Under the pieces are notes generated by a model that was given only the letters and a program-made list of their open reading frames with translations, made no database searches and was not told where the DNA came from. Source: Draconibacterium sp. (GTDB lineage Bacteria > Bacteroidota > Bacteroidia > Bacteroidales > Prolixibacteraceae). Taken from it: a DNA stretch of 64,000 nucleotides. The position numbers and the translations under genes are program-made. Every line of letters starts with the position of its first letter. The stretch's first letter is position 1. Shown here piece after piece: positions 2,134 through 60,137 of the stretch. The stretch lies in the NCBI GenBank assembly GCA_037444065.1, contig JBBINB010000002.1, positions 48,642 through 112,641 on the forward strand. Reading direction: 5' to 3'.

Positions 2134-2786
2134 TTCTAACCCTTCTAATGGAACTTTATTCGAACGTAATTTCAATAAAATGGTGAATAAACTATTTTAC
2201 TTGCATTCTTGCATCACTGAATGCCATTTCAAACAACATTAACAAAGATAAAATGGCAATTATAAGTACCGTGCTGTTTTAAAAGTTGTACAGAATATTG
2301 CTTTCAAAATATCATAAAATTAAAGGAAAAACTGTTTAAGCAGTTACTTCCTATTCGGCTAACTATCTGTATTACTGCATTTTTAGCTATTTAAAACAGA
2401 AAACATAAAAAATAATAACAATTTTTGATAATGTTCAAAAATTTATTTATGTTTGCCTTTAGCTTTTTGAAATACATTTCTAGGACGCATTTTAATAACT
2501 ATTTGAGTAATTGGAACCTATTTTAGGTAGAATTGTGTTTGTCGTACATTGATTTAATTAATGAAGTTCGGATTATAAAAGATAAAAGTATCATTTCTAA
2601 ACGTGCTGCTTTTCTCTTTGCAAAAATCCTGTAAACAAACTGTCTGAAATATAAGTTCCGCTTTACGTATGATTTGACAATAACAATTTCTTGTTATTGA
2701 GGGCGCTAAGTATCGGTTATTTAGCTAAGATGCGTATGCGAAATTGAAAAAATGGACATAAATAAATTTTTATAATACCATTAATT

Positions 2787-3134
2787 ATGAATTCAAATTT
2801 TGCACACAGCGAATCGGCAATATCGTTAAAACGAATCATTCAGAAGGAACATTCTGACGAAGACAAAATCAGGATTGTTATTGAAGGTATATTTGGCGAT
2901 ATTTCAGTTAAACAAATTTGCGAAAAAGAGGGAATTAATACAGACTTGTTTTACGAATGGAGTAAATATTTTATGGAAACAAATTACATCAGATTTACAA
3001 GCGACGCGAAAAGTAGAGCATCCTTAATTAACGTTGACCAATTAAAAAGTCAAAATATGTTTTTGAGAAGGTTGGTTGCCGACTTGAGCCGCGAAAACAA
3101 TTTACTGAAGAATAAATTGAATAAAGCCTGTTAA
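2787..3134 (+). CDS. Orphan IS3-family OrfA-like HTH protein (Transposase_8-like), no OrfB
   Basis: EDKIRIVIEGIFGDISVKQICEKEGINTDLFYEWSKYF followed by a leucine-zipper-like tail (LKSQNMFLRRLVADLSRENNLLKNKL) resembles IS3/IS911 OrfA. No DDE OrfB, frameshift site or IRs follow. Confidence 0.5.
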   Translation: MNSNFAHSESAISLKRIIQKEHSDEDKIRIVIEGIFGDISVKQICEKEGINTDLFYEWSKYFMETNYIRFTSDAKSRASLINVDQLKSQNMFLRRLVADLSRENNLLKNKLNKAC

Positions 3135-3410
3135 CCAGTTACTAACCAGTTTAGGCTAACGATTTAATTTGTTAACAGTTATTTTGGTTTATTGGGCTAA
3201 TAAACAGATTTACAATTTATTACGGCATATTTTAACAACCTGCTCATTTAATATATCGGAACATAAGAAAAGAGATAGAACTGGGCCTTTTATTTTGATA
3301 AAAAAAGTATGGCGCCTGGTTTAAACTAAAAGCTTTTGGAAGAAAAGGAATTCCGGAAGATTTTTAACAAAATCGAAATGGAAAATATGTATTAACTTAA
3401 TAAAATCCCA

Positions 3411-3890
3411 ATGAAAGCTGGCACAGATAATCAAGTTTTGTATTCTGCATCTAAAACAGAAATTTTTTGTGAAGAACAAAATAAAATAGAGTTGTTAAGT
3501 TGTCCGAATGGTAAAACCACCTGTAAAGAGCTTTTGCTGGTTATTAATAAAAACTTTGTGATAGCCCATCAGGCTTTTATCGATAAGGATTTTAACCGTT
3601 CGATTGATTTGTTAAAAAACACCTATTACAAAACGGCTGAATTAACCGATGCTCAGTGCCAAAAATGTGCAAACCTTTTTCGTTCAACTATTAATGACTC
3701 TTTAAAAGACATTCACATCGATTTGAATAAAATGGCCTCAGGCCTTTTTGGAAAAAAAAGCTATAGGCCCATTTGCAACAAAGCCCTGAATGTTTTAACT
3801 GAATTTGACAAAGCAAAAATAAATGGTTCCCTGCAAAAAGAGAGATTTAATACTACATACATAAAATCGCCTTTAAGAAAAGTGAGCTGA
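3411..3890 (+). CDS. Hypothetical protein (Cys-containing, no recognised family)
   Basis: 159-aa ORF in an AT-rich islet. Only the ORF length and its isolation support it. Confidence 0.3.
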   Translation: MKAGTDNQVLYSASKTEIFCEEQNKIELLSCPNGKTTCKELLLVINKNFVIAHQAFIDKDFNRSIDLLKNTYYKTAELTDAQCQKCANLFRSTINDSLKDIHIDLNKMASGLFGKKSYRPICNKALNVLTEFDKAKINGSLQKERFNTTYIKSPLRKVS

Positions 3891-4190
3891 CTGGCATCAC
3901 CGGACAAATCAAATGAATTAAAAAAGAAATCAATTTCAAGGTATTACAGATAAACCAAAATTAAGTAAATCTGAAGGGCAGTTATTTGGAAACTACTTAA
4001 ATAAAGGAATTAGTTTTGTTTGGAAAGAACAAAATTAAAAGCCTGGCAAACTGCCGGGCTTTTTCTTTGTTATCAAATAGGTAAAAATGTATTTTTGCCA
4101 AAACAAATTAAACTGGTTTTACAGCTTTCAAACCGTATTAATTTGAATAAAAGGGGTAAGCCCCATAATAATTTGAAAAGGAGTAATTAT

Positions 4191-13184: not shown

Positions 13185-13303
13185 TTTTTTTGTTTTATTT
13201 TTTTTATACCCAAAGATTATGAATTTTCTTGTTCCATTCAACTACCTGATAATGTGCTGTTTTATGCAAAGCGTTGCGCAAACCTTTGCATCTGAAAAAA
13301 GTG

Positions 13304-13679
13304 TTATACAACATGCGAATCAGCAATTTTTTTAGTATTAATACACCCGGAAATACCATCGCCGATTTGGGCAATTCCAATTCCATTGTAAAGCGGAACA
13401 AAAAACCTGACTGCAAGAATTGCAGCAATTGGAATTGAAAGGCTGAAATCAAACGCATTCCAGTCGGCCATAAAAGCTTTTCCGGGCAAGGCCGGAAAAC
13501 TGATGCCGCTGACAAACGCGGCAAAAATCTACATCCCCACAATCCATGCCGGCAGCTTACCTCCACCCGAAGTAAACTGGCCGGTGGTTTTGTTTTTATA
13601 GAAAAAACTAGCCCCAAACAGCACATTTCCAAGGGTGATGATTATTAAAAACAATTAGATGGGCTACAGGCATTTTCAT
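13304..13679 (-). pseudogene. Remnant of a sodium:solute symporter (N-terminal ~110 codons only)
   Basis: Minus-strand reading gives ...[86 protein letters not shown], an SSS family N-terminus. It has an in-frame TAG (13529-13531), a frameshift relative to the ATG at 13679, and loses similarity after ~105 aa. Confidence 0.6.
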
Positions 13680-13774
13680 GAATTTAATAAAATTAGAATA
13701 GAATTGCTGTTGATTGTTTGCATGAATCGTGTTTCAAATTAAATTTGATACCTAAACAAACTGAACCGGTTTAA

Positions 13775-18390: not shown

Positions 18391-18530
18391 TACCAGTTTC
18401 TTTTAATGCCGCAAAAGTACTGAAATTGTTGAAATCAACGGTTGGTGGAATCTGAATTTTAATCCCTACAAACAGAAACATTATCTTAGTTCAACTCTTC
18501 AATTCCTGACTCATTTACATGTACTGCGCT

Positions 18531-18869
18531 TTATTCATCCAGCAGACCAGTTACTTCTACTTTTAATTTTGGCAAATGATTTAATACAATACTCCATATC
18601 AAATCATCCGATATACTGTCATATCCGTGAATTATCCTGTTTCGGGTTCCGACAATTTTCTCAGCATTGTCAAGTTTAAAATTTTTGTCCTTTTTAAGTA
18701 TCCTGTTTACAGCCCCTCCTATAATTTCCAAATTTCGTTCAACTGCTCTTCTGGTTTTAATATCAGAAGTATATTCCCCAAAAATCCTTGGCTTGTTCTC
18801 AAAGTAGCTATCAATTTCGTTTATCGACTGTAAAATATCAAAAAGCCAGGTCTTTATGTCATTATCCAT
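18531..18869 (-). CDS. hepT: HepT-like (DUF86) ribonuclease toxin, type VII TA
   Basis: 112 aa with RNRIIHGY, which matches the Rx4HxY active-site motif. 8-bp overlap with the upstream nucleotidyltransferase gene. Confidence 0.85.
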   Translation of the reverse strand: MDNDIKTWLFDILQSINEIDSYFENKPRIFGEYTSDIKTRRAVERNLEIIGGAVNRILKKDKNFKLDNAEKIVGTRNRIIHGYDSISDDLIWSIVLNHLPKLKVEVTGLLDE

Positions 18870-19161
18870 AAATCAAAAGTTTAGAAGAGTCAATCGATTT
18901 TCTTAAATATGGATTTTTAATCGCCTTATTTTCAAGCAAATCAACTTGTCGCTCCAGCAATTTCTCTAATGAGGTTTTTAAGTCAAAATAATTGTCAGCA
19001 TAGTAGAATAGATCAACTCCGGAGAAGTCAACCAATAAATCGATGTCACTTGACTTATTAAAATCATCTGTCAGGATTGAACCAAACACAAATAGCCTCG
19101 CAACCCGATGTTTATTACATAATGCCCTTATTGTATCAATATTTTTATCAATAATCCTCAT
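18862..19161 (-). CDS. mntA: MntA-like minimal nucleotidyltransferase antitoxin
   Basis: 99 aa with FGSILTDDFNKSSDIDLLV, which matches GSx10DxD. Confidence 0.85.
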   Translation of the reverse strand: MRIIDKNIDTIRALCNKHRVARLFVFGSILTDDFNKSSDIDLLVDFSGVDLFYYADNYFDLKTSLEKLLERQVDLLENKAIKNPYLRKSIDSSKLLIYG

Positions 19162-19233
19162 AATTCAAAATTACAATAATATTAAATCATTTAACAGTTT
19201 CATTGTTCTCGTTGTCTCCCAGTGTTCGCAAAC

Positions 19234-52621: not shown

Positions 52622-54028
52622 TCATTTCTCGTACCCTAATATTTTAAACATATCCTGTGCCGACTGTTCATTTCTGTACACATAATCGACAATGTTACCC
52701 TTGTCATCGCGGTCAATAATTACATGTTTTGGCGAAGGGATCAGGCAGTGTTTAATACCGCCGTATCCGCTAATGGCATCCTGGTAGGCCCCTGTATGAA
52801 AAAAACCGAGGTACAACGGTTCTTCATCGTCTTCGGGGTATGATGGCAACAAAACTTCCTGGTTTAAATCTTCAGAGTTGTAATAATCAGAGTGGTCGCA
52901 GCTGATTCCCCCAATGTTTACACGTTTATATTCGTTGTTCCACTTATTAATTGGCAATAAAATAAATTTTTCAAAAATCGACCACGCATCCGGAATTGTA
53001 TTCATCAGGCTGTTATTTACAATGTACCAGCTTTCGGTGTCGTTTTGCTGTTTTTGTTCAAGCACTTCAAAAACAATAGCGCCGCTTTCTCCTACGGTAT
53101 ATTTCCCAAATTCGGTATAAATATCGGGTTCTTTTACTTTCTCAACTGCACAACTATCTTTAATAGCTGCAACAATTTCGTTAATCATGTATTCGTAATT
53201 GTATTCAAAACCAAGGTGGTTCCTTATCGGAAATCCTCCGCCCAGGTTAAAAGAATCGAGGGTATTGCATTTTTTCTTTAAATCGACATACAGTTTCATC
53301 GCTTTTTGAAACTCGCCCCAATAGTACAAACTGTCTTTGATCCCCGAATCGACAAAAAAATGGAGCATTTTTAATTCAATGTGCTCTTTGTCCTTTATGT
53401 TATCCAGGTAAAACTTTAAAATATCGGTGTGCCTGATCCCCAACCGGGATGTATAATATGAGGATTGTGATTCCTCATTTATTGCCATCCGGATTCCAAT
53501 TTTAACTTTTACCCCGTTCGCTAATTTTTCAATTCTGCTCAGTTCGTTTATGCTGTCGAGAACAATAATGTTATTTCTGAAACCGATTTCCTGGAGATTA
53601 AGTATTTTGGCCAGGTACTCGTCGGTTTTGTATCCGTTATGAACGATAATCCTGTTTTTATCTATTTTTTTTTCGCGGAATAAACTCAGAATCAGGTCGA
53701 TGTCGTAAGCCGATGATGTTTCCAGATTTACGTTCTGCTTAAGTGCTTCGTTAATCACATGCGAGAAGTGGTTGCATTTTGTGCAGTAACAATAATAATA
53801 GTGGCCTTTATAGTTGTTCTTTTTAATGGCCTTATTAAACAAATTACGCGCCTTTTTTATTTGATCGCCTATTTTGGGTAGGTAAATAAACCTGAAAGGT
53901 GTTCCGTACTTTTTTATCAGGTACTTTAACGAAATCCCATGAAATGTAAGACTGTTATCCCTTAAATCAAAGCCTTCCTGTGGGAAGTAGTAGCTTTGCT
54001 CGATCAAATCAAAATAGGTATTTTTCAT
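52622..54028 (-). CDS. Alanine-racemase-fold basic amino acid decarboxylase, probably arginine decarboxylase
   Basis: 468 aa. YGTPFRFIYLPKI, CYCTKCNHF (PLP-Lys region), NLGGGFP, GISCDHSD and FHTGAYQ. Divergent from the carboxy(nor)spermidine genes. Confidence 0.7.
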   Translation of the reverse strand: MKNTYFDLIEQSYYFPQEGFDLRDNSLTFHGISLKYLIKKYGTPFRFIYLPKIGDQIKKARNLFNKAIKKNNYKGHYYYCYCTKCNHFSHVINEALKQNVNLETSSAYDIDLILSLFREKKIDKNRIIVHNGYKTDEYLAKILNLQEIGFRNNIIVLDSINELSRIEKLANGVKVKIGIRMAINEESQSSYYTSRLGIRHTDILKFYLDNIKDKEHIELKMLHFFVDSGIKDSLYYWGEFQKAMKLYVDLKKKCNTLDSFNLGGGFPIRNHLGFEYNYEYMINEIVAAIKDSCAVEKVKEPDIYTEFGKYTVGESGAIVFEVLEQKQQNDTESWYIVNNSLMNTIPDAWSIFEKFILLPINKWNNEYKRVNIGGISCDHSDYYNSEDLNQEVLLPSYPEDDEEPLYLGFFHTGAYQDAISGYGGIKHCLIPSPKHVIIDRDDKGNIVDYVYRNEQSAQDMFKILGYEK

Positions 54029-54345
54029 TACGCATTCATAAAAAAATTATTGGTATTTAAATTTGCGACAAAATAAACTATTTTTTCCGAAAAAAGGGGA
54101 AAGAATTTTTAAAAGGACCCGCTAAAGACCAATAATTTCCGATACATAACTTATAATTTTAAATGAAAAAAACGGTTGTGGCTTTTTTATTTGCAGCCTG
54201 TCGTTGCGGATCCCGTTTAATATTTCACGATGGGCATTTCATAAAAAAATGCTTATTTTGCTTCTTTATTGTATCTTTTAGTTTTGATTATATTTTAAGT
54301 TTTCAATAAAAAGTACTTAACAAACAATTTCAAGATTTTATTAAA

Positions 54346-55539
54346 ATGAGTAAAGTATTAATTATAGGAGCAGGTGGGGTAGGCCGCGTAGTTGCAAGCA
54401 AATGTGCCGATAATCCGGAAGTATTTTCTGAAATTTTACTGGCAAGCCGAACCCTTTCGAAATGCGATGTCATTGCCCGCGAAGTTGGAAGGGGAAGGAT
54501 TTCAACAGCACAGGTAAATGCTGATAATGTGCCCGAAGTGGTGGCCTTAATTAACAAATTTAAACCTGAGCTTGTAATTAACGTCGCACTTCCGTACCAG
54601 GATTTACCAATTATGGATGCCTGTCTTGAAACAGGCGTGAACTACCTTGATACAGCGAATTACGAGCCAAAAGACGTGGCAAAATTTGAATACAGCTGGC
54701 AATGGGCTTATCATGACCGTTTTAAGGAAAAGGGTATCATGGCAGTTCTGGGTTGCGGTTTCGACCCAGGTGTAACAAGCATTTACACAGCATATGCAGC
54801 CAAACATCATTTCGACGAAATTGAGTATCTCGACATTGTAGATTGTAACGGCGGCGACCATGGTAAAGCTTTTGCAACTAATTTTAATCCCGAAATCAAT
54901 ATCCGCGAGATTACCCAGAATGGCAAATACTGGGAAAATGGCAAATGGGTTGAAACCAAACCTTTTGAGATAAAAAAAGCGCTTACTTATCCCAATATTG
55001 GCCCGCGTAATTCGTATGTTTTGTATCACGAAGAACTCGAATCGCTGGTTAAAAACTTCCCTTCTATTAAAAGGGCGCGGTTTTGGATGACTTTTGGCGA
55101 TGAATATTTGACCCACCTTAGGGTTATCCAGAATATTGGAATGGCCCGCATTGATACGGTAAAATATAAAGGTGTTGATATTGTACCGCTCGAATTTCTG
55201 AAAGCTGTTTTACCGGATCCTGGCGATTTAGGCGAAAATTACACCGGCGAAACGTCGATAGGCTGCCGCATAAAAGGCATTAAAAATGGAAAAGAACAAA
55301 CCTATTATGTCTGGAATAACTGTAGCCATCAGGTAGCTTTTGAGGAAACCGGGACACAGGGAGTTTCATATACAACCGGAGTGCCTGCAATGTTAGGTGC
55401 AATGCTTGTTCTAACGGGAAAATGGAAAGGGAAAGGTGTGTTTAATGTCGAAGAATTTGATCCCGATCCGTTTATGGAAAAAATTGGCCAGTATGGGTTG
55501 CCATGGAACGAAGTGTTTAATGTCGATTTGGAAGTATAA
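54346..55539 (+). CDS. Carboxy(nor)spermidine dehydrogenase/synthase (saccharopine dehydrogenase family)
   Basis: MSKVLIIGAGGVGRVVA is the Rossmann motif. 397 aa, colinear with CANSDH. Immediately precedes nspC. Confidence 0.85.
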   Translation: MSKVLIIGAGGVGRVVASKCADNPEVFSEILLASRTLSKCDVIAREVGRGRISTAQVNADNVPEVVALINKFKPELVINVALPYQDLPIMDACLETGVNYLDTANYEPKDVAKFEYSWQWAYHDRFKEKGIMAVLGCGFDPGVTSIYTAYAAKHHFDEIEYLDIVDCNGGDHGKAFATNFNPEINIREITQNGKYWENGKWVETKPFEIKKALTYPNIGPRNSYVLYHEELESLVKNFPSIKRARFWMTFGDEYLTHLRVIQNIGMARIDTVKYKGVDIVPLEFLKAVLPDPGDLGENYTGETSIGCRIKGIKNGKEQTYYVWNNCSHQVAFEETGTQGVSYTTGVPAMLGAMLVLTGKWKGKGVFNVEEFDPDPFMEKIGQYGLPWNEVFNVDLEV

Positions 55540-55550
55540 ATTAAAATTCA

Positions 55551-56687
55551 TTGGACTATTCAAAAATACCTTCTCCGGCGTATGTTTTAGATGAAAAACT
55601 ATTGCGCCAAAACCTTGAATTGATTAATAAGGTTCAGAAAGAAGCCGGCATAGAAATAATATTGGCTTTTAAAGGATTTGCCATGTGGAGCGCTTTCCCG
55701 CTTGTCAGGAAATATTTAAGCGGTGCAACGGCAAGTTCATTGTTCGAAGCCCGGTTATGTTTCGAAGAAATGAAAACCCGCGCCCATGTTTATTCACCGG
55801 TTTATTTTGAAAACGAATTGGAAGAATTGATGGGGTACAGCAGCCACATTGTTTTTAATTCCGTCAACCAGTTTCTTAAATTCTATCCTGAAACCCGGAA
55901 AGCAGAACATCCAATTTCGTGCGGGATACGGGTAAATCCCGGGTTTTCGGATGTAAAAACCGAACTTTACAATCCAAGCGCTGCAGGTTCGCGGCTTGGA
56001 GTGGGAATAGAGGATTTTCCGGATGAACTGCCGGAAGGAATTGAAGGAATCCATTTTCATGTTTTATGCGAATCTGATTCGTTCAGTCTTGAAAAAGTTC
56101 TTGAAAATCTTGAATCCAAATTCGGGAAATACCTGCACCAGGTAAAATGGGTAAACATGGGAGGAGGTCATTTAATGACACGTGCTGGTTACAATCTCGA
56201 ACATTTAATAAATCTGCTGATAAAATTCAGAAAAAAATATAATGTTAAGGTAATTTTGGAACCAGGCAGCGCTATTGCCTGGGAGACGGGTGTTTTGGTC
56301 TCTGCCGTTAAAGACATTGTTTCTCATAAAGGCGTTAAAACAGCTATTCTCGATGTGTCGTTTACGGCCCATATGCCCGATACGCTTGAAATGCCTTACC
56401 GTCCGAAAATTATAGGGGCAACCGATCCCGGCAAAAACAGCAGCCATTTATACCGGCTGGGGGGGGTGAGCTGTCTGGCCGGCGATTTTATGGAAGCCTA
56501 CGATTTTAAACACGAACTGCAAATCGATGAGAAAATTATTTTTCTGGACATGATTCATTACACAATGGTAAAAACCACCATGTTTAACGGGGTAAACCAC
56601 CCGGCAATTGCAATCTGGAAAGAGGACGGCCCGTTGGAAATTATCCGGCAATTTGTTTATGAAGATTTTAAAAGCAGATTATCCTGA
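55551..56687 (+). CDS. nspC: Carboxy(nor)spermidine decarboxylase
   Basis: 378 aa. PSPAYVLDEKLLRQN, AFKGFAMW (PLP-Lys region), NMGGGH, EPGSAI and GGVSCLAGD match NspC. TTG start as in the ORF track. Confidence 0.85.
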   Translation: MDYSKIPSPAYVLDEKLLRQNLELINKVQKEAGIEIILAFKGFAMWSAFPLVRKYLSGATASSLFEARLCFEEMKTRAHVYSPVYFENELEELMGYSSHIVFNSVNQFLKFYPETRKAEHPISCGIRVNPGFSDVKTELYNPSAAGSRLGVGIEDFPDELPEGIEGIHFHVLCESDSFSLEKVLENLESKFGKYLHQVKWVNMGGGHLMTRAGYNLEHLINLLIKFRKKYNVKVILEPGSAIAWETGVLVSAVKDIVSHKGVKTAILDVSFTAHMPDTLEMPYRPKIIGATDPGKNSSHLYRLGGVSCLAGDFMEAYDFKHELQIDEKIIFLDMIHYTMVKTTMFNGVNHPAIAIWKEDGPLEIIRQFVYEDFKSRLS

Positions 56688-56764
56688 GCCATTTTGAATA
56701 TTGCGTTTTTTAATCCGATTCGCACTCATTTCTTCTTGATATTAATCGTTAAAGCCATCTAACC

Positions 56765-58555
56765 ATGAAAAAATATTTTGTTCTTTTACTCCCTGTGTTC
56801 TTAAATTTGTATGTTTTTGGTCAGAATCAGACCAATGAGCGTGCCAAATGGTTTACCGATTCGCGCTTTGGAATGTTTATTCACTGGGGAATTTACAGTG
56901 GCGCAGAAGGATACTGGAAAGGCGAAAAGCTAAGAAACGACAATGATTATGCTGAATGGATCTATTACCGGAACCGCATAGAAAAAAATGAATACCTTTC
57001 CTTGCTTGACCGTTTCGATTGGGAGGATATTAATCCGGAAGAATGGGTAATTCTGGCTAAAAAATCGGGAATGAAATATGTAACGTTCACGGCAAAACAC
57101 CATGATGGATTTGGCTTATGGGACAGCAAGGTAAGTAATTACGATTTGGGAGATTATACAAATCCGAAAAGAGATATCGTTAAGGAACTTGCCGAAGCCT
57201 GCACGAAACACGGCCTTAAACTTGGTTTGTACTATTCGCATTGGGTCGACTGGGAACACGAATACGGATGGGATCACACCAAAGAGTTAACGGGAATTGC
57301 ATCTGAAAAATACGACAAATACTGGCAGGAAAAAGTTATGCTTCAAATGCGTGAGTTGCTCACCAGTTACGGGGAAATCTCAATTTTCTGGTTCGATATG
57401 TGGGTTCACCATTCAAATACCGTGGTTACAAAGAGTCAGCTGCTCCAGTTAAAAGGATTAATCAGGGAATTACAACCCAATTGCCTTGTTAATTCGCGCC
57501 TGGGGCTTTCAATTGAAGAAGATCCCGACATCGATTTTAAAACACTTGGCGACAATTCATTGGGAAACCGAAAAGAAGAATTTCCCTGGCAATCTCCGGC
57601 AACAGTTGCCCATTCATGGGGTTTTCACGCAACCGACACCCAGTGGAAATCGACATCGTCATTATTGAAAGCATTGATAAACAATGTAAGTATGAATGGT
57701 AATTTAATGCTGAATATTGGTCCGCGTGCTAATGGCCAAGTCCCGTTCGAGATTGCTCAACGTATGCAGGAAATGGGTAAATGGCTTGAAATAAACGGAG
57801 AATCTGTATATGGTTCAGGGGCCGTGAACCTTCCAAAAGATCAACATGACTGGGGTAAAATTACCTCAAAGCAAACGGATAATGGGACCAGATTGTACCT
57901 GCATGTTTTTAGCTGGCCTTTAAATAGGGAATTGTATTTAACCGGCATCGGAACTAAACCCGAAAAAGTATATATTCTGGCCGACAAGCAAAAGACGCCA
58001 ATGGATTTTACACATTCAGAGGCGGTGACAAAAATCCAGCTTCCCGCTATGCAGCACGATAACTACGTTTCTGTAATAGCAATCGAATACAAAGACGACC
58101 CGGAAATAATAGAAGGCCTAGCTGCCAGAACTACCGATGGTGGTTATTCACTGCTGCCTGGCAATCAAAATCAGTTCGACCAGCTTTCGATCAATAAAAA
58201 AGAACGTGGCGGAACAGTGCCTGAATATGTTGCTATGGGCGATAAAAAAATGTTCAGTTGGAAAATTTATGTCGATGAGCCGGGTGAAAAGTCAATTGAT
58301 GTTTCCTACAGTTTTCAACATCATTCCAAAACAGGTAAAATGGTTTTTGCAACCGCTGGCAACAGATTGGAACATCAGGTTTCAAATACAGGGAAAACCG
58401 TTGGCGAGCCTAACCAAAATTGGATAATCGATAATTTCAAATCGAACCGGTTAGGGAAAATAGTCTTTCCTGAAAAAGGTTATTATAATGTTGCCTTTGA
58501 AATTATACCCGATGCGGAGGAGGAGGTAAAATTTCAGTGGATTTGGATAAGATAA
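56765..58555 (+). CDS. Alpha-L-fucosidase (GH29) with C-terminal accessory domain
   Basis: WFTDSRFGMFIHWGIYS, KHHDGFGLWDS and FWFDMW. Signal peptide. 596 aa. Confidence 0.9.
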   Translation: MKKYFVLLLPVFLNLYVFGQNQTNERAKWFTDSRFGMFIHWGIYSGAEGYWKGEKLRNDNDYAEWIYYRNRIEKNEYLSLLDRFDWEDINPEEWVILAKKSGMKYVTFTAKHHDGFGLWDSKVSNYDLGDYTNPKRDIVKELAEACTKHGLKLGLYYSHWVDWEHEYGWDHTKELTGIASEKYDKYWQEKVMLQMRELLTSYGEISIFWFDMWVHHSNTVVTKSQLLQLKGLIRELQPNCLVNSRLGLSIEEDPDIDFKTLGDNSLGNRKEEFPWQSPATVAHSWGFHATDTQWKSTSSLLKALINNVSMNGNLMLNIGPRANGQVPFEIAQRMQEMGKWLEINGESVYGSGAVNLPKDQHDWGKITSKQTDNGTRLYLHVFSWPLNRELYLTGIGTKPEKVYILADKQKTPMDFTHSEAVTKIQLPAMQHDNYVSVIAIEYKDDPEIIEGLAARTTDGGYSLLPGNQNQFDQLSINKKERGGTVPEYVAMGDKKMFSWKIYVDEPGEKSIDVSYSFQHHSKTGKMVFATAGNRLEHQVSNTGKTVGEPNQNWIIDNFKSNRLGKIVFPEKGYYNVAFEIIPDAEEEVKFQWIWIR

Positions 58556-58694
58556 TTTTTTGCTAATTTTTAATTATCATTCTGTAAAACAGTAATTTAT
58601 ACCGTATTATTTTATTAACAATTGTTAATAACCCCGGTTCACATAATGTGCAAATAAACCATACTAAAACTCGATATTTTTTTGGGGTTTTAAT

Positions 58695-58702
58695 TATATT
58701 TG
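58695..58702 (+). promoter_or_regulatory. Candidate -7 box (TATATTTG) for the downstream candidate RNA
   Basis: Exact TAnnTTTG match at the transition from AT-rich spacer to the structured region. Confidence 0.3.
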
Positions 58703-58704
58703 TT

Positions 58705-59231
58705 CTATCAGGTGAGCGATAAAAGGCAGCTTTGAAAACGTGGAAATGACAAAAGTTACTTAGTTGAAACCAAAAGCATTTCAATCCAACCTTCGGGATG
58801 GCGCGTCGGAGAAGCCGGAGTTTGAACAAGACTAACTGGAAAGTCAAAGTTCAGGCAATTATCGGAGAACAAATCCAGACGTTCTTTAAAGATTGAGTTA
58901 TCAGGCAGAAGTGATAAGAATTTCGGTTTGAGTCGCAGGCTGCACAGTTTCGGAGGGATAAAACCTGAAAAGACTGGTAATTGGAAGCGTGTGCCGAAAG
59001 GGACAGGTAGAAAATGCTGAATAACACTTCGTCCACAAAGACATCCGGAAAGTTGAGTGGACGGCTTGAGGATTACGCCTTAGAAAGTGTAATCCAGGAG
59101 TTGGGGGCAGAAAACAATTCGAAAGAGTTGGGTTAAGCCGGCCGAAATAACAGTAACCTGGCGCTTTAGCGACTTCGGTTGCAAAAAGTGAATGGGAACT
59201 AATCGTAAAGATTGGTTCCCATTTGTTTTTT
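58705..59231 (+). ncRNA. Candidate large structured RNA of unrecognised class
   Basis: No credible ORF in six frames. Higher G+C than other spacers. Several helices are capped by GAAA/UUCG tetraloops on the + strand only. Multi-helix junction at 59063-59139. Ends in a strong intrinsic terminator. Confidence 0.5.
59192..59231 (+). terminator. Strong Rho-independent terminator
   Basis: ATGGGAACTAATC-gtaaa-GATTGGTTCCCAT (13-bp stem) followed by TTGTTTTTT. Confidence 0.8.
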
Positions 59232-59292
59232 ATTACCCGCGATTAATTTAAAATACATTTCAGTCAAAAATTGCCTTATCGATTTTACTTTT

Positions 59293-59300
59293 TACTTTTG
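59293..59300 (+). promoter_or_regulatory. Candidate -7 box (TACTTTTG) for kdsA
   Basis: Exact TAnnTTTG match ending 18 nt upstream of the kdsA ATG. Confidence 0.35.
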
Positions 59301-59318
59301 TTGAAATACCTATAAAAA

Positions 59319-60137
59319 ATGATTCCACAAATTGACAAATTAAAATTCACCGAATCGGGCAATTTTTTTCTGATGGCCGGACCCTGTGCTATTGAAGGAG
59401 AACAGATGGCCCTGGATATTGCAGGGAAAATACTCGAAATTTCGTATAAGCTCAGAATTCCATACATTTTTAAGGGTTCTTACCGAAAAGCTAACCGTTC
59501 GCGGATTGATTCATTCTCAGGTATTGGCGATGAAAAAGCCCTTAATATCCTTCAAAAAGTTAGTGAAACATATAATATTCCTACAGTCACCGATATTCAC
59601 TCTGCCGGTGAGGCTGCAATGGCAGCCGAATTTGTTGATGTGTTGCAGATACCCGCTTTTTTATGCCGCCAAACCGATATTCTGGTTGCTGCAGCAAAAA
59701 CAGGAAAAGCTGTAAACATAAAAAAAGGCCAGTTTCTTTCGGCTGACGCCATGAAATTTGCTGTTGACAAGGTACTTGAAAGTGGAAACAGGAAAATCAT
59801 TTTAACTGAGCGGGGAACAACATTCGGTTACCAGGATTTAATAATCGATTATCGGGGAATTCCTGAAATGCAAAAATTCAATGTCCCCGTAGTACTCGAT
59901 ATTACCCACTCGCTTCAACAGCCAAACCAGGCAAGCGGAGTCACAGGTGGAAAACCTCAGTTAATTGAAACAGTGGCCCGTGCGGGTATTGCTGCTGGTG
60001 TCGATGGAATTTTCATAGAAACACATCCAAATCCTTCAATTGCAAAATCGGACGGCGCAAATATGCTTCAACTTGATTTACTGCAAAACTTGCTTGAAAA
60101 ACTTGTGCTGCTGAAACAGGCAGTGAACCGTTTTTAA
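59319..60137 (+). CDS. kdsA: 3-deoxy-8-phosphooctulonate (KDO8P) synthase
   Basis: 272 aa. AGPCAIE, FKGSYRKANRS, LQIPAFLCRQTD, NIKKGQF and DITHSLQQP are colinear with KdsA. Confidence 0.95.
   Translation: MIPQIDKLKFTESGNFFLMAGPCAIEGEQMALDIAGKILEISYKLRIPYIFKGSYRKANRSRIDSFSGIGDEKALNILQKVSETYNIPTVTDIHSAGEAAMAAEFVDVLQIPAFLCRQTDILVAAAKTGKAVNIKKGQFLSADAMKFAVDKVLESGNRKIILTERGTTFGYQDLIIDYRGIPEMQKFNVPVVLDITHSLQQPNQASGVTGGKPQLIETVARAGIAAGVDGIFIETHPNPSIAKSDGANMLQLDLLQNLLEKLVLLKQAVNRF

Follow-up and report, generated by a model that had tools for sequence, protein, structure and literature searches.

A conserved intergenic element of Prolixibacteraceae that very probably encodes a large structured RNA of an undescribed class

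The 64,000-nucleotide stretch of DNA analysed here (the window) comes from Draconibacterium sp. (contig JBBINB010000002.1, positions 48,642 to 112,641), and its kdsA and GH29 homologues place it in the Prolixibacteraceae, close to Draconibacterium, Maribellus and strain Z1-6. Between the stop codon of a GH29 fucosidase gene (58555) and the start of kdsA (59319) lies a gap of 763 bp, for which an earlier reading of the sequence alone (the sequence-only reading) had proposed a plus-strand structured RNA of about 520 nucleotides (nt) of unrecognized class, with a promoter box before it and a terminator at its end. Our comparative analysis supports this proposal and puts the length at about 525 nt. 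As that reading had also noted, the gap lacks a credible open reading frame (ORF) and is more balanced in G+C content than the other spacers: its only two sizeable ORFs are both antisense (94 amino acids (aa), 58563–58847, and 61 aa, 58851–59036), and the core of the element (58707–59190) has 44.6% G+C and 61.6% purine, compared with 21–33% G+C for most other spacers in the window. Covariation-backed structure was found on one strand, and no conserved ORF emerged across 26 homologues. We regard it as very probable that the element is a genuine, structured, stand-alone non-coding RNA (ncRNA) belonging to a class described neither in Rfam nor in the literature searched.

Synteny look-ups and a single strict DNA pattern, derived from two invariant 5′ blocks, supplied the homologues; a metagenome scan with this pattern yielded 24 further loci, all of which were true homologues by profile search. 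With GH29 as the anchor, the RNA was found directly downstream in every orthologue contig that was long enough on that side. kdsA proved to be the wrong anchor, since only one of 80 kdsA loci from GTDB genomes carries the RNA (L007, Maribellus sediminis; nhmmer E = 4e-64). This locus is also the only one among them with a GH29–kdsA arrangement (tblastn), and no G+C-rich gap was seen beside kdsA in the remaining kdsA loci. In a search for nspC homologues, the best 120 matches were all 82–87% identical and did not reach other genera. The resulting alignment contains 26 distinct full-length sequences (19 clusters at 90% identity) from Draconibacterium, Maribellus, strain Z1-6 and metagenome-assembled genomes, all Prolixibacteraceae, with pairwise identities of 58–100% (median 69%), and the cultured hosts among them are Maribellus comscasis, M. 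sediminis and strain Z1-6. The nhmmer profile match in the window spans 58707–59237. The most divergent copy (L099, 8103–8640, minus strand) is 58% identical to that of the window, carries an insertion in the hairpin with the CUGGAA loop and has changes in both candidate kissing loops. The RNA is single-copy in the window and occupies the same locus throughout the homologues; nhmmer with the --max setting detected neither a second copy in the window nor a distant copy in other loci. At the sensitivities used, the RNA pattern was absent from viral contigs, and phage records (blastn) and plasmids gave no match to the RNA.

The consensus fold obtained with RNAalifold from the 26 sequences comprises 116 base pairs in 29 helices (coordinates in the table below). 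Across these pairs, 96.6% of the alignment cells form a standard pair, compared with 89.3 ± 0.3% in shuffled and 26–46% in slid controls, and the covariation score is 0.342, as against 0.196 (shuffled) and 0.04–0.09 (slid). Changes on both sides that keep the pair (compensatory changes) occur at 57 of the 116 pairs, a value reached by none of 500 shuffles (31.2 ± 3.1) and well separated from the slid controls (15–27). Both the sequence conservation and the covariation that the sequence-only reading had suggested looking for in relatives were thus found. A strict scan for double changes returned 26 covarying pairs inside the helices of the model and 137 outside it. None of these 137 has a covarying stacked neighbour, a distribution consistent with phylogenetic noise, and the scan revealed no extra helices or pseudoknots beyond such isolated pairs.

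The same data identify the strand, which had been proposed to be the plus strand. G·U cells greatly outnumber A·C cells (264 versus 28), and pairing falls to 88.8% when the alignment is read as the minus strand; the plus strand is therefore the RNA strand. In agreement, the minimum free energy (MFE) of the plus strand is −162.4 kcal/mol, compared with −132.6 ± 5.9 kcal/mol in dinucleotide shuffles (z = −5.05; none of 100 shuffles was as good), whereas the minus strand reaches a z-score of only −1.10. All 26 homologues have stop codons in all six frames, and the syntenic position in relatives holds no protein gene, which answers the concern that the element might be a decayed pseudogene.

Features of the RNA and of its control region in the window (positions are those of the 64,000-nt stretch; helices are numbered H2–H29 after P1; "earlier helix" refers to the numbering of the sequence-only reading)
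Feature	Position	Strand	Details
Perfect 20-bp palindrome TTATTAACAATTGTTAATAA	58612–58631	.	About 76–95 bp upstream of the inferred start; core AACAATTGTT
Second conserved upstream block GGTTCACATAATGTGCAAATAAAC	58636–58659	.	Consensus GGTTrA....GTGaATaTAAAC, from homologue alignments
−7 box TATATTTG	58695–58702	+	Type TAnnTTTG; T, A, T, T, T and G invariant in 26/26
Whole RNA, about 525 nt	58707–59231	+	Ends inferred from promoter box and terminator U-run
P1, closing the whole core	58708–58713 (UCAGGU) with 59156–59161 (ACCUGG)	+	100% of cells paired
Junction strand GAGCGAUAAAA	58714–58724	+	Near-invariant, unpaired in consensus; opposite AAAUAACAGUA (59145–59155)
H2, long-range GGC/GCC	5′ strand 58725–58727; 3′ strand in 59141–59161	+	Encloses domains and arms
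5′ domain, H3–H7	58729–58815	+	Invariant hairpin GUUACUUAGUUGAAAC; CC-UUCG-GG hairpin
Central domain, H8–H18	58816–59031	+	Closed by near-invariant 6-bp H8 (CGrAGU/ACUUCG)
Arm hairpin H19–H20 (UCCA...UGGA)	59032–59061	+	5/7 pairs compensatory; earlier helix 4
Arm hairpin H21–H23	59064–59101	+	Holds GGAUUAC/GUAAUCC (earlier helix 3) and a conserved GUAGAAAG-type loop
Arm H24 (GGC/GCC) around GAAA-capped H25	59106–59139	+	H24 100% paired; H25 4/4 pairs compensatory; H25 is earlier helix 1
3′ hairpin H26–H28, UUCG loop	59162–59190	+	H27 3/4 pairs compensatory; earlier helix 2
Intrinsic terminator	59191–59231	+	14-bp stem (59191–59204/59210–59223), 5-nt loop, then UUGUUUUUU

In the consensus model, P1 varies at one pair from G-C to A-U in three sequences (L087, L091 and L093) and at another between U-A and U-G (13:13). 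The junction strands inside it stand out by their conservation (AAUAAC.GUA is invariant within AAAUAACAGUA), and we infer from this that GAGCGAUAAAA and AAAUAACAGUA are a candidate protein-binding or tertiary site. Compensatory changes support the 5′ domain (three of four pairs in H3, five of five in H4), whose UUCG loop is replaced by GAAA in L098 and L105; such swapping between UUCG and GNRA tetraloops among lineages is typical of structural caps. The central domain contains two hairpins, H9–10 (loop CUGGAA) and H11–12 (loop UCCAGA), and a sub-domain with H13–H18 whose closing helix, GUU.UCAG/CUGA..AAC, emerged on realignment (90.3% paired in UCAG/CUGA); compensatory changes are abundant in H15, H16 and H17. 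In the second arm, all three pairs of H21 are compensatory (A-U 13, G-C 7; U-A 12, C-G 11). Downstream of P1 follow two hairpins, the one with the UUCG loop and then the terminator. A loop–loop contact between CUGG (58836–58839) and CCAG (58875–58878) was also considered. Both loop sequences are present in 25 of the 26 homologues, and L087 shortens the contact to 3 bp; because the L099 variant is not compensatory, the contact stays a conjecture founded on conservation.

The seven complementary segments listed in the sequence-only reading all lie in the window sequence where that reading had placed them, and five belong to the conserved model: CAATTC-GAAA-GAGTTG, GCGAC-TTCG-GTTGC, GGATTAC/GTAATCC, GTCCAC/GTGGAC and GAGAAC/GTTCTT (helices 1, 2, 3, 4 and 6). 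The other two are complementary in the window and do not hold across the homologues. Helix 5 (GGCTTGA/TTAAGCC) pairs in 42% of cells and was rejected in favour of its rivals H21 and H24, which pair in 99.4% of cells, with abundant compensatory change in H21. Similarly, helix 7 (TCAGG/CCTGA) pairs in 66% of cells and gave way to the rival UCAG/CUGA pairing (90.3%).

The RNA is flanked by signals of its own. The predicted promoter box conforms to TAnnTTTG in all 26 homologues, and a cTTGAC-like −33 element lies about 20 bp upstream of it in most of them, with a weaker CTCGAT in the window. Promoters of the Bacteroidota reportedly combine a −7 TAnnTTTG with a −33 TTG-type element about 19–21 bp upstream, and the arrangement found here agrees with this housekeeping-sigma type. 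At the other end, the terminator that had been predicted is present and conserved, although its stem comprises 14 bp from 59191 and not 13 bp from 59192. The terminator helix (H29) is 99.5% paired across the homologues, all of which have the U-run, and its stem is contained in the MFE fold of the window sequence; a simple terminator-consensus scan did not list this hairpin.

Further upstream, all 26 homologues keep the core of the palindrome (AACAATTGTT), departing from it at one or two positions at most. The palindrome occurs once in the window and, among all 117 loci compared, only upstream of this RNA. Since its few substitutions are not compensatory, we interpret it as a DNA site and not as an RNA helix; it is probably the operator or activator site of a dimeric transcription factor. 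The palindrome and the second block together (58612–58659) exceed most of the RNA in conservation and, in all sequences examined, occur at this locus alone. Between the second block and the −7 box, little besides the −33 element is conserved.

Given this position behind another gene, the element might instead be a 3′ untranslated region (UTR), or a processed 3′ fragment, of the GH29 or nspC mRNA that stabilizes or regulates the message or yields a 3′-UTR-derived small RNA. Wherever a locus offers enough sequence, GH29 is the gene on the upstream side; only in L099 does the RNA directly follow nspC (carboxynorspermidine decarboxylase) without an intervening GH29 gene. The gene immediately before the RNA is thus invariably one of these two and shares its strand, and the interval from the GH29 stop codon to the RNA shows no terminator hairpin. 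However, in each of the 26 homologues (L099 among them) the conserved −7 box and the upstream dyad separate the RNA from the preceding gene, and the RNA is kept whichever gene precedes it, be it GH29 or nspC, and also in L087–L090, where the polyamine genes are absent. A core of 29 helices, moreover, goes far beyond the needs of a UTR stabilizer. We therefore consider a UTR origin improbable.

Membership in a known RNA family was examined with cmscan against the 4227 models of Rfam 15, at gathering thresholds on the 64-kb window and at E ≤ 10 with permissive filters on 58500–59350. The former returned no match, and the latter gave only chance matches (E ≥ 2), mostly of microRNA models to the terminator hairpin. 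In six of the more divergent homologue loci, no match at the RNA was obtained at E ≤ 1, and a full-text literature search found no description of such an RNA. ARAGORN detected neither tRNA nor transfer-messenger RNA (tmRNA) genes in the window; the entire 64 kb contains no tRNA gene and no Rfam family at gathering thresholds. These searches included the large ornate classes and uphold the earlier failure to recognize a family, as they do the absence of a match to RNase P RNA, tmRNA, signal recognition particle (SRP) RNA and 6S RNA, to which the missing sequence strands and the fold itself also speak.

Individual candidates were rejected on several grounds. For RNase P RNA, neither RNaseP_bact_a nor RNaseP_bact_b matched, the P4 strands GGAAAGUCCGG ... 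ACAGAAnCCGGCUUA are absent from the sequence, and so are the CR-I/CR-V strands. tmRNA is opposed by the ARAGORN and Rfam results and by the two hairpins, one of them the terminator, that follow P1. The multi-branched, 29-helix fold of about 525 nt is unlike 6S RNA, which forms a rod-like hairpin about 180 nt long around a central bubble and had no Rfam match, and SRP RNA matched at no threshold used, whether in the window or in the six homologue loci. GOLLD, ROOL, OLE, HEARO and raiA likewise lack a model match in 58500–59350 and in the six loci. The context of GOLLD and ROOL is also missing, with no tRNA in 64 kb, no occurrence of the pattern in viral contigs and no blastn match in phage records. 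As to HEARO and omega RNA, the neighbours are GH29, nspC, kdsA, argS, DUF4256 and MORN genes, with no IscB, IsrB or TnpB nuclease among them. For group I and group II introns, there was no Rfam match, the position is intergenic and no ORF resembling a reverse transcriptase was found.

The element could still be a highly divergent member of one of the known large families that Rfam missed (RNase P RNA, tmRNA, 6S, ROOL, GOLLD, OLE or HEARO). Its general look, a P1-closed multi-domain fold with tetraloops and conserved junctions, would fit, and covariance models sometimes miss very divergent lineages. Nevertheless, none of the models responded even at the permissive thresholds, ARAGORN was negative, there is no tRNA, phage or IscB context, and the P4 and CR-I/CR-V strands of RNase P RNA are lacking, which makes such a kinship very improbable. 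Because every membership test that was run (models, P4 strands, tRNA and phage context, partner gene) gave a negative answer, we file the element as a new RNA class.

Several known systems nevertheless share features with it. The OLE RNA of Bacillota is co-transcribed with oapA, the gene of its partner protein. It is described as functioning as part of a ribonucleoprotein. Like the RNA studied here, OLE is a bacterial ncRNA of about 500–600 nt with many covarying helices, conserved junction nucleotides, a range of one lineage and no cis target; in contrast, the present RNA is found in Bacteroidota, has its own promoter and lacks a linked partner gene and any sequence or model match to OLE. ROOL and GOLLD, typically found near tRNAs or in prophages, are similarly large, ornate RNAs without an assigned function and with many tetraloop-capped arms, whereas the present RNA occupies a fixed chromosomal locus without an Rfam match, a tRNA in 64 kb or phage matches. 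According to a preprint on cryo-electron microscopy, ROOL, GOLLD and OLE form RNA-only assemblies (10.1101/2024.12.08.627333), so that self-assembly is a live option for this RNA as well.

The resemblance to type A RNase P RNA lies in the similar size, the multi-domain core closed by P1, the stand-alone gene with promoter and terminator, and the alternation of invariant single-stranded junctions with variable peripheral helices. It ends at the P4 strands and the model match, which this RNA lacks, and at its distribution, which is known for one family and is not universal. The raiA motif, of about 200 nt, occurs in Bacillota and Actinomycetota, unlike this Bacteroidota RNA of about 525 nt without a model match. 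What it shares with raiA-motif RNA and other orphan structured ncRNAs is a stand-alone, structured form and a discovery through genome comparison; their biochemical role has yet to be settled (PMC10861870).

On the downstream side, the neighbouring gene varies among the homologues and is kdsA, argS (minus strand), a DUF4256 gene, the gene of a MORN protein (minus strand) or a phosphatase-like gene. Because the genes differ both upstream (GH29 or nspC) and downstream, we conclude that the RNA and its upstream control region are conserved together amid changing neighbours. With a downstream gene that differs between loci and often has the opposite orientation, the RNA does not appear to act as a cis regulator of a neighbouring gene. 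The description of the element as lying upstream of kdsA is accurate for the window; as a statement of linkage it does not hold, as the RNA is linked to what precedes it (GH29 or nspC) and not to kdsA.

These observations also bear on the idea of a cis-acting leader, a riboswitch or attenuator controlling kdsA. In the window, L007 and L118, kdsA does come after the RNA in the same orientation, but the single occurrence among the 80 kdsA loci and a downstream gene that is mostly different or convergent contradict a riboswitch or any other cis leader. The strong, conserved terminator is accompanied by no conserved alternative pairing, and in L007 an ORF of 149 aa (3457–3906), absent from the window, separates the terminator of the RNA from kdsA. 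A leader function is accordingly exceedingly improbable.

Public gene calls lie on top of the RNA in L118 (7163–7396, 77 aa), L082 (4976–5131, 51 aa) and L091 (5457–5609, 50 aa, minus strand). These small hypothetical ORFs differ in frame, strand and position and are almost certainly spurious; they should give way to an ncRNA feature, and they illustrate how gene callers misplace ORFs. Although such calls might hint at a decayed protein gene or the remnant of a mobile element with fortuitous hairpins, this explanation has next to no probability left and is refuted by the covariation, as the called ORFs do not correspond to one another, stops interrupt every frame in all 26 homologues, substitutions keep base pairs rather than codons, and the element is single-copy and syntenic, without flanking repeats and without phage or plasmid matches.

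We return to the reading as a stand-alone RNA and to what it might do. A discrete RNA of about 525 nt would be made from its own Bacteroidota-type promoter, the upstream palindrome would bind a dimeric transcription factor, and transcription would stop at the conserved 14-bp intrinsic terminator. In the folded product, P1 and the second long-range helix would enclose a multi-way junction of the 5′ domain, the central domain and three hairpin arms, with UUCG or GNRA tetraloops capping many of the arms and with peripheral helices that vary yet keep pairing. The almost invariant junction strands and a few loops would then form the functional surface, and the variable, tetraloop-capped helices the scaffold; the invariant unpaired segments may serve as an active site or as the contact with a partner, either a protein or further copies of the RNA.

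On balance, we lean towards an RNA that acts in trans as a stable folded molecule, taking a ribonucleoprotein scaffold and an RNA-only assembly together, and a ribozyme would add a small further share to this estimate. A regulator working by base pairing seems unlikely. More speculatively, and somewhat less unlikely, the RNA may represent a new class of large RNAs with a biochemical activity of its own (as a ribozyme or as an RNA-only or RNA–protein assembly like those recently seen for ROOL, GOLLD and OLE), the first such class native to Bacteroidota chromosomes and switched on by a dedicated palindrome-binding factor.

Several points weigh against the reading as a new stand-alone RNA. Existence, ends and abundance of the transcript are deduced from sequence signals. 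The known range appears to be one clade of the Prolixibacteraceae, sampled by the synteny look-ups and the one strict pattern. Kinship among the homologues makes the shuffled controls overstate significance, a bias countered by the slid controls and by the argument from stacking. Key long-range helices, namely H8 and most of P1, do not vary and are backed by conservation and energy, not by covariation. No partner gene linked to the RNA was seen among the neighbouring genes, and, as no terminator precedes the promoter of the RNA, there is room for read-through or processing from an upstream mRNA.

Large, complex bacterial RNAs are rare, and those that are understood carry out core biochemical tasks (rRNA, RNase P RNA, tmRNA and group I and II introns); the few orphans, OLE, ROOL, GOLLD, raiA and HEARO, each led to unexpected biology. 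The RNA described here has a well-supported 29-helix model, a clean transcription unit and an apparent dedicated regulatory site. Its presence in cultured hosts makes it directly testable, and its importance is limited chiefly by the range known so far, a single bacterial family.

Regarding the genes that precede the RNA in the window (about 53000–58555), their order is an arginine/ornithine decarboxylase (minus strand), carboxynorspermidine dehydrogenase, nspC (55551–56687) and the GH29 fucosidase. The arginine/polyamine gene order recurs in L081–L086, L091–L093 and L118, and in several genomes argS follows the RNA in convergent orientation. This arginine and polyamine theme of the neighbours, though noticeable, may be plain synteny.

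Elsewhere in the window, two ORF-poor stretches (no ORF of at least 150 aa) lie at 2134–3395 (1262 bp, 29% G+C) and 18403–19233 (831 bp, 33% G+C). A third segment, at 13242–13774, has 533 bp without a long ORF at a near-coding G+C content (39%) and overlaps an ORF of 142 aa on the minus strand (13204–13632). Its fold z-scores are similar on both strands (−3.5 and −3.2), and it is for this reason likely to be the gene of a small protein rather than an RNA.

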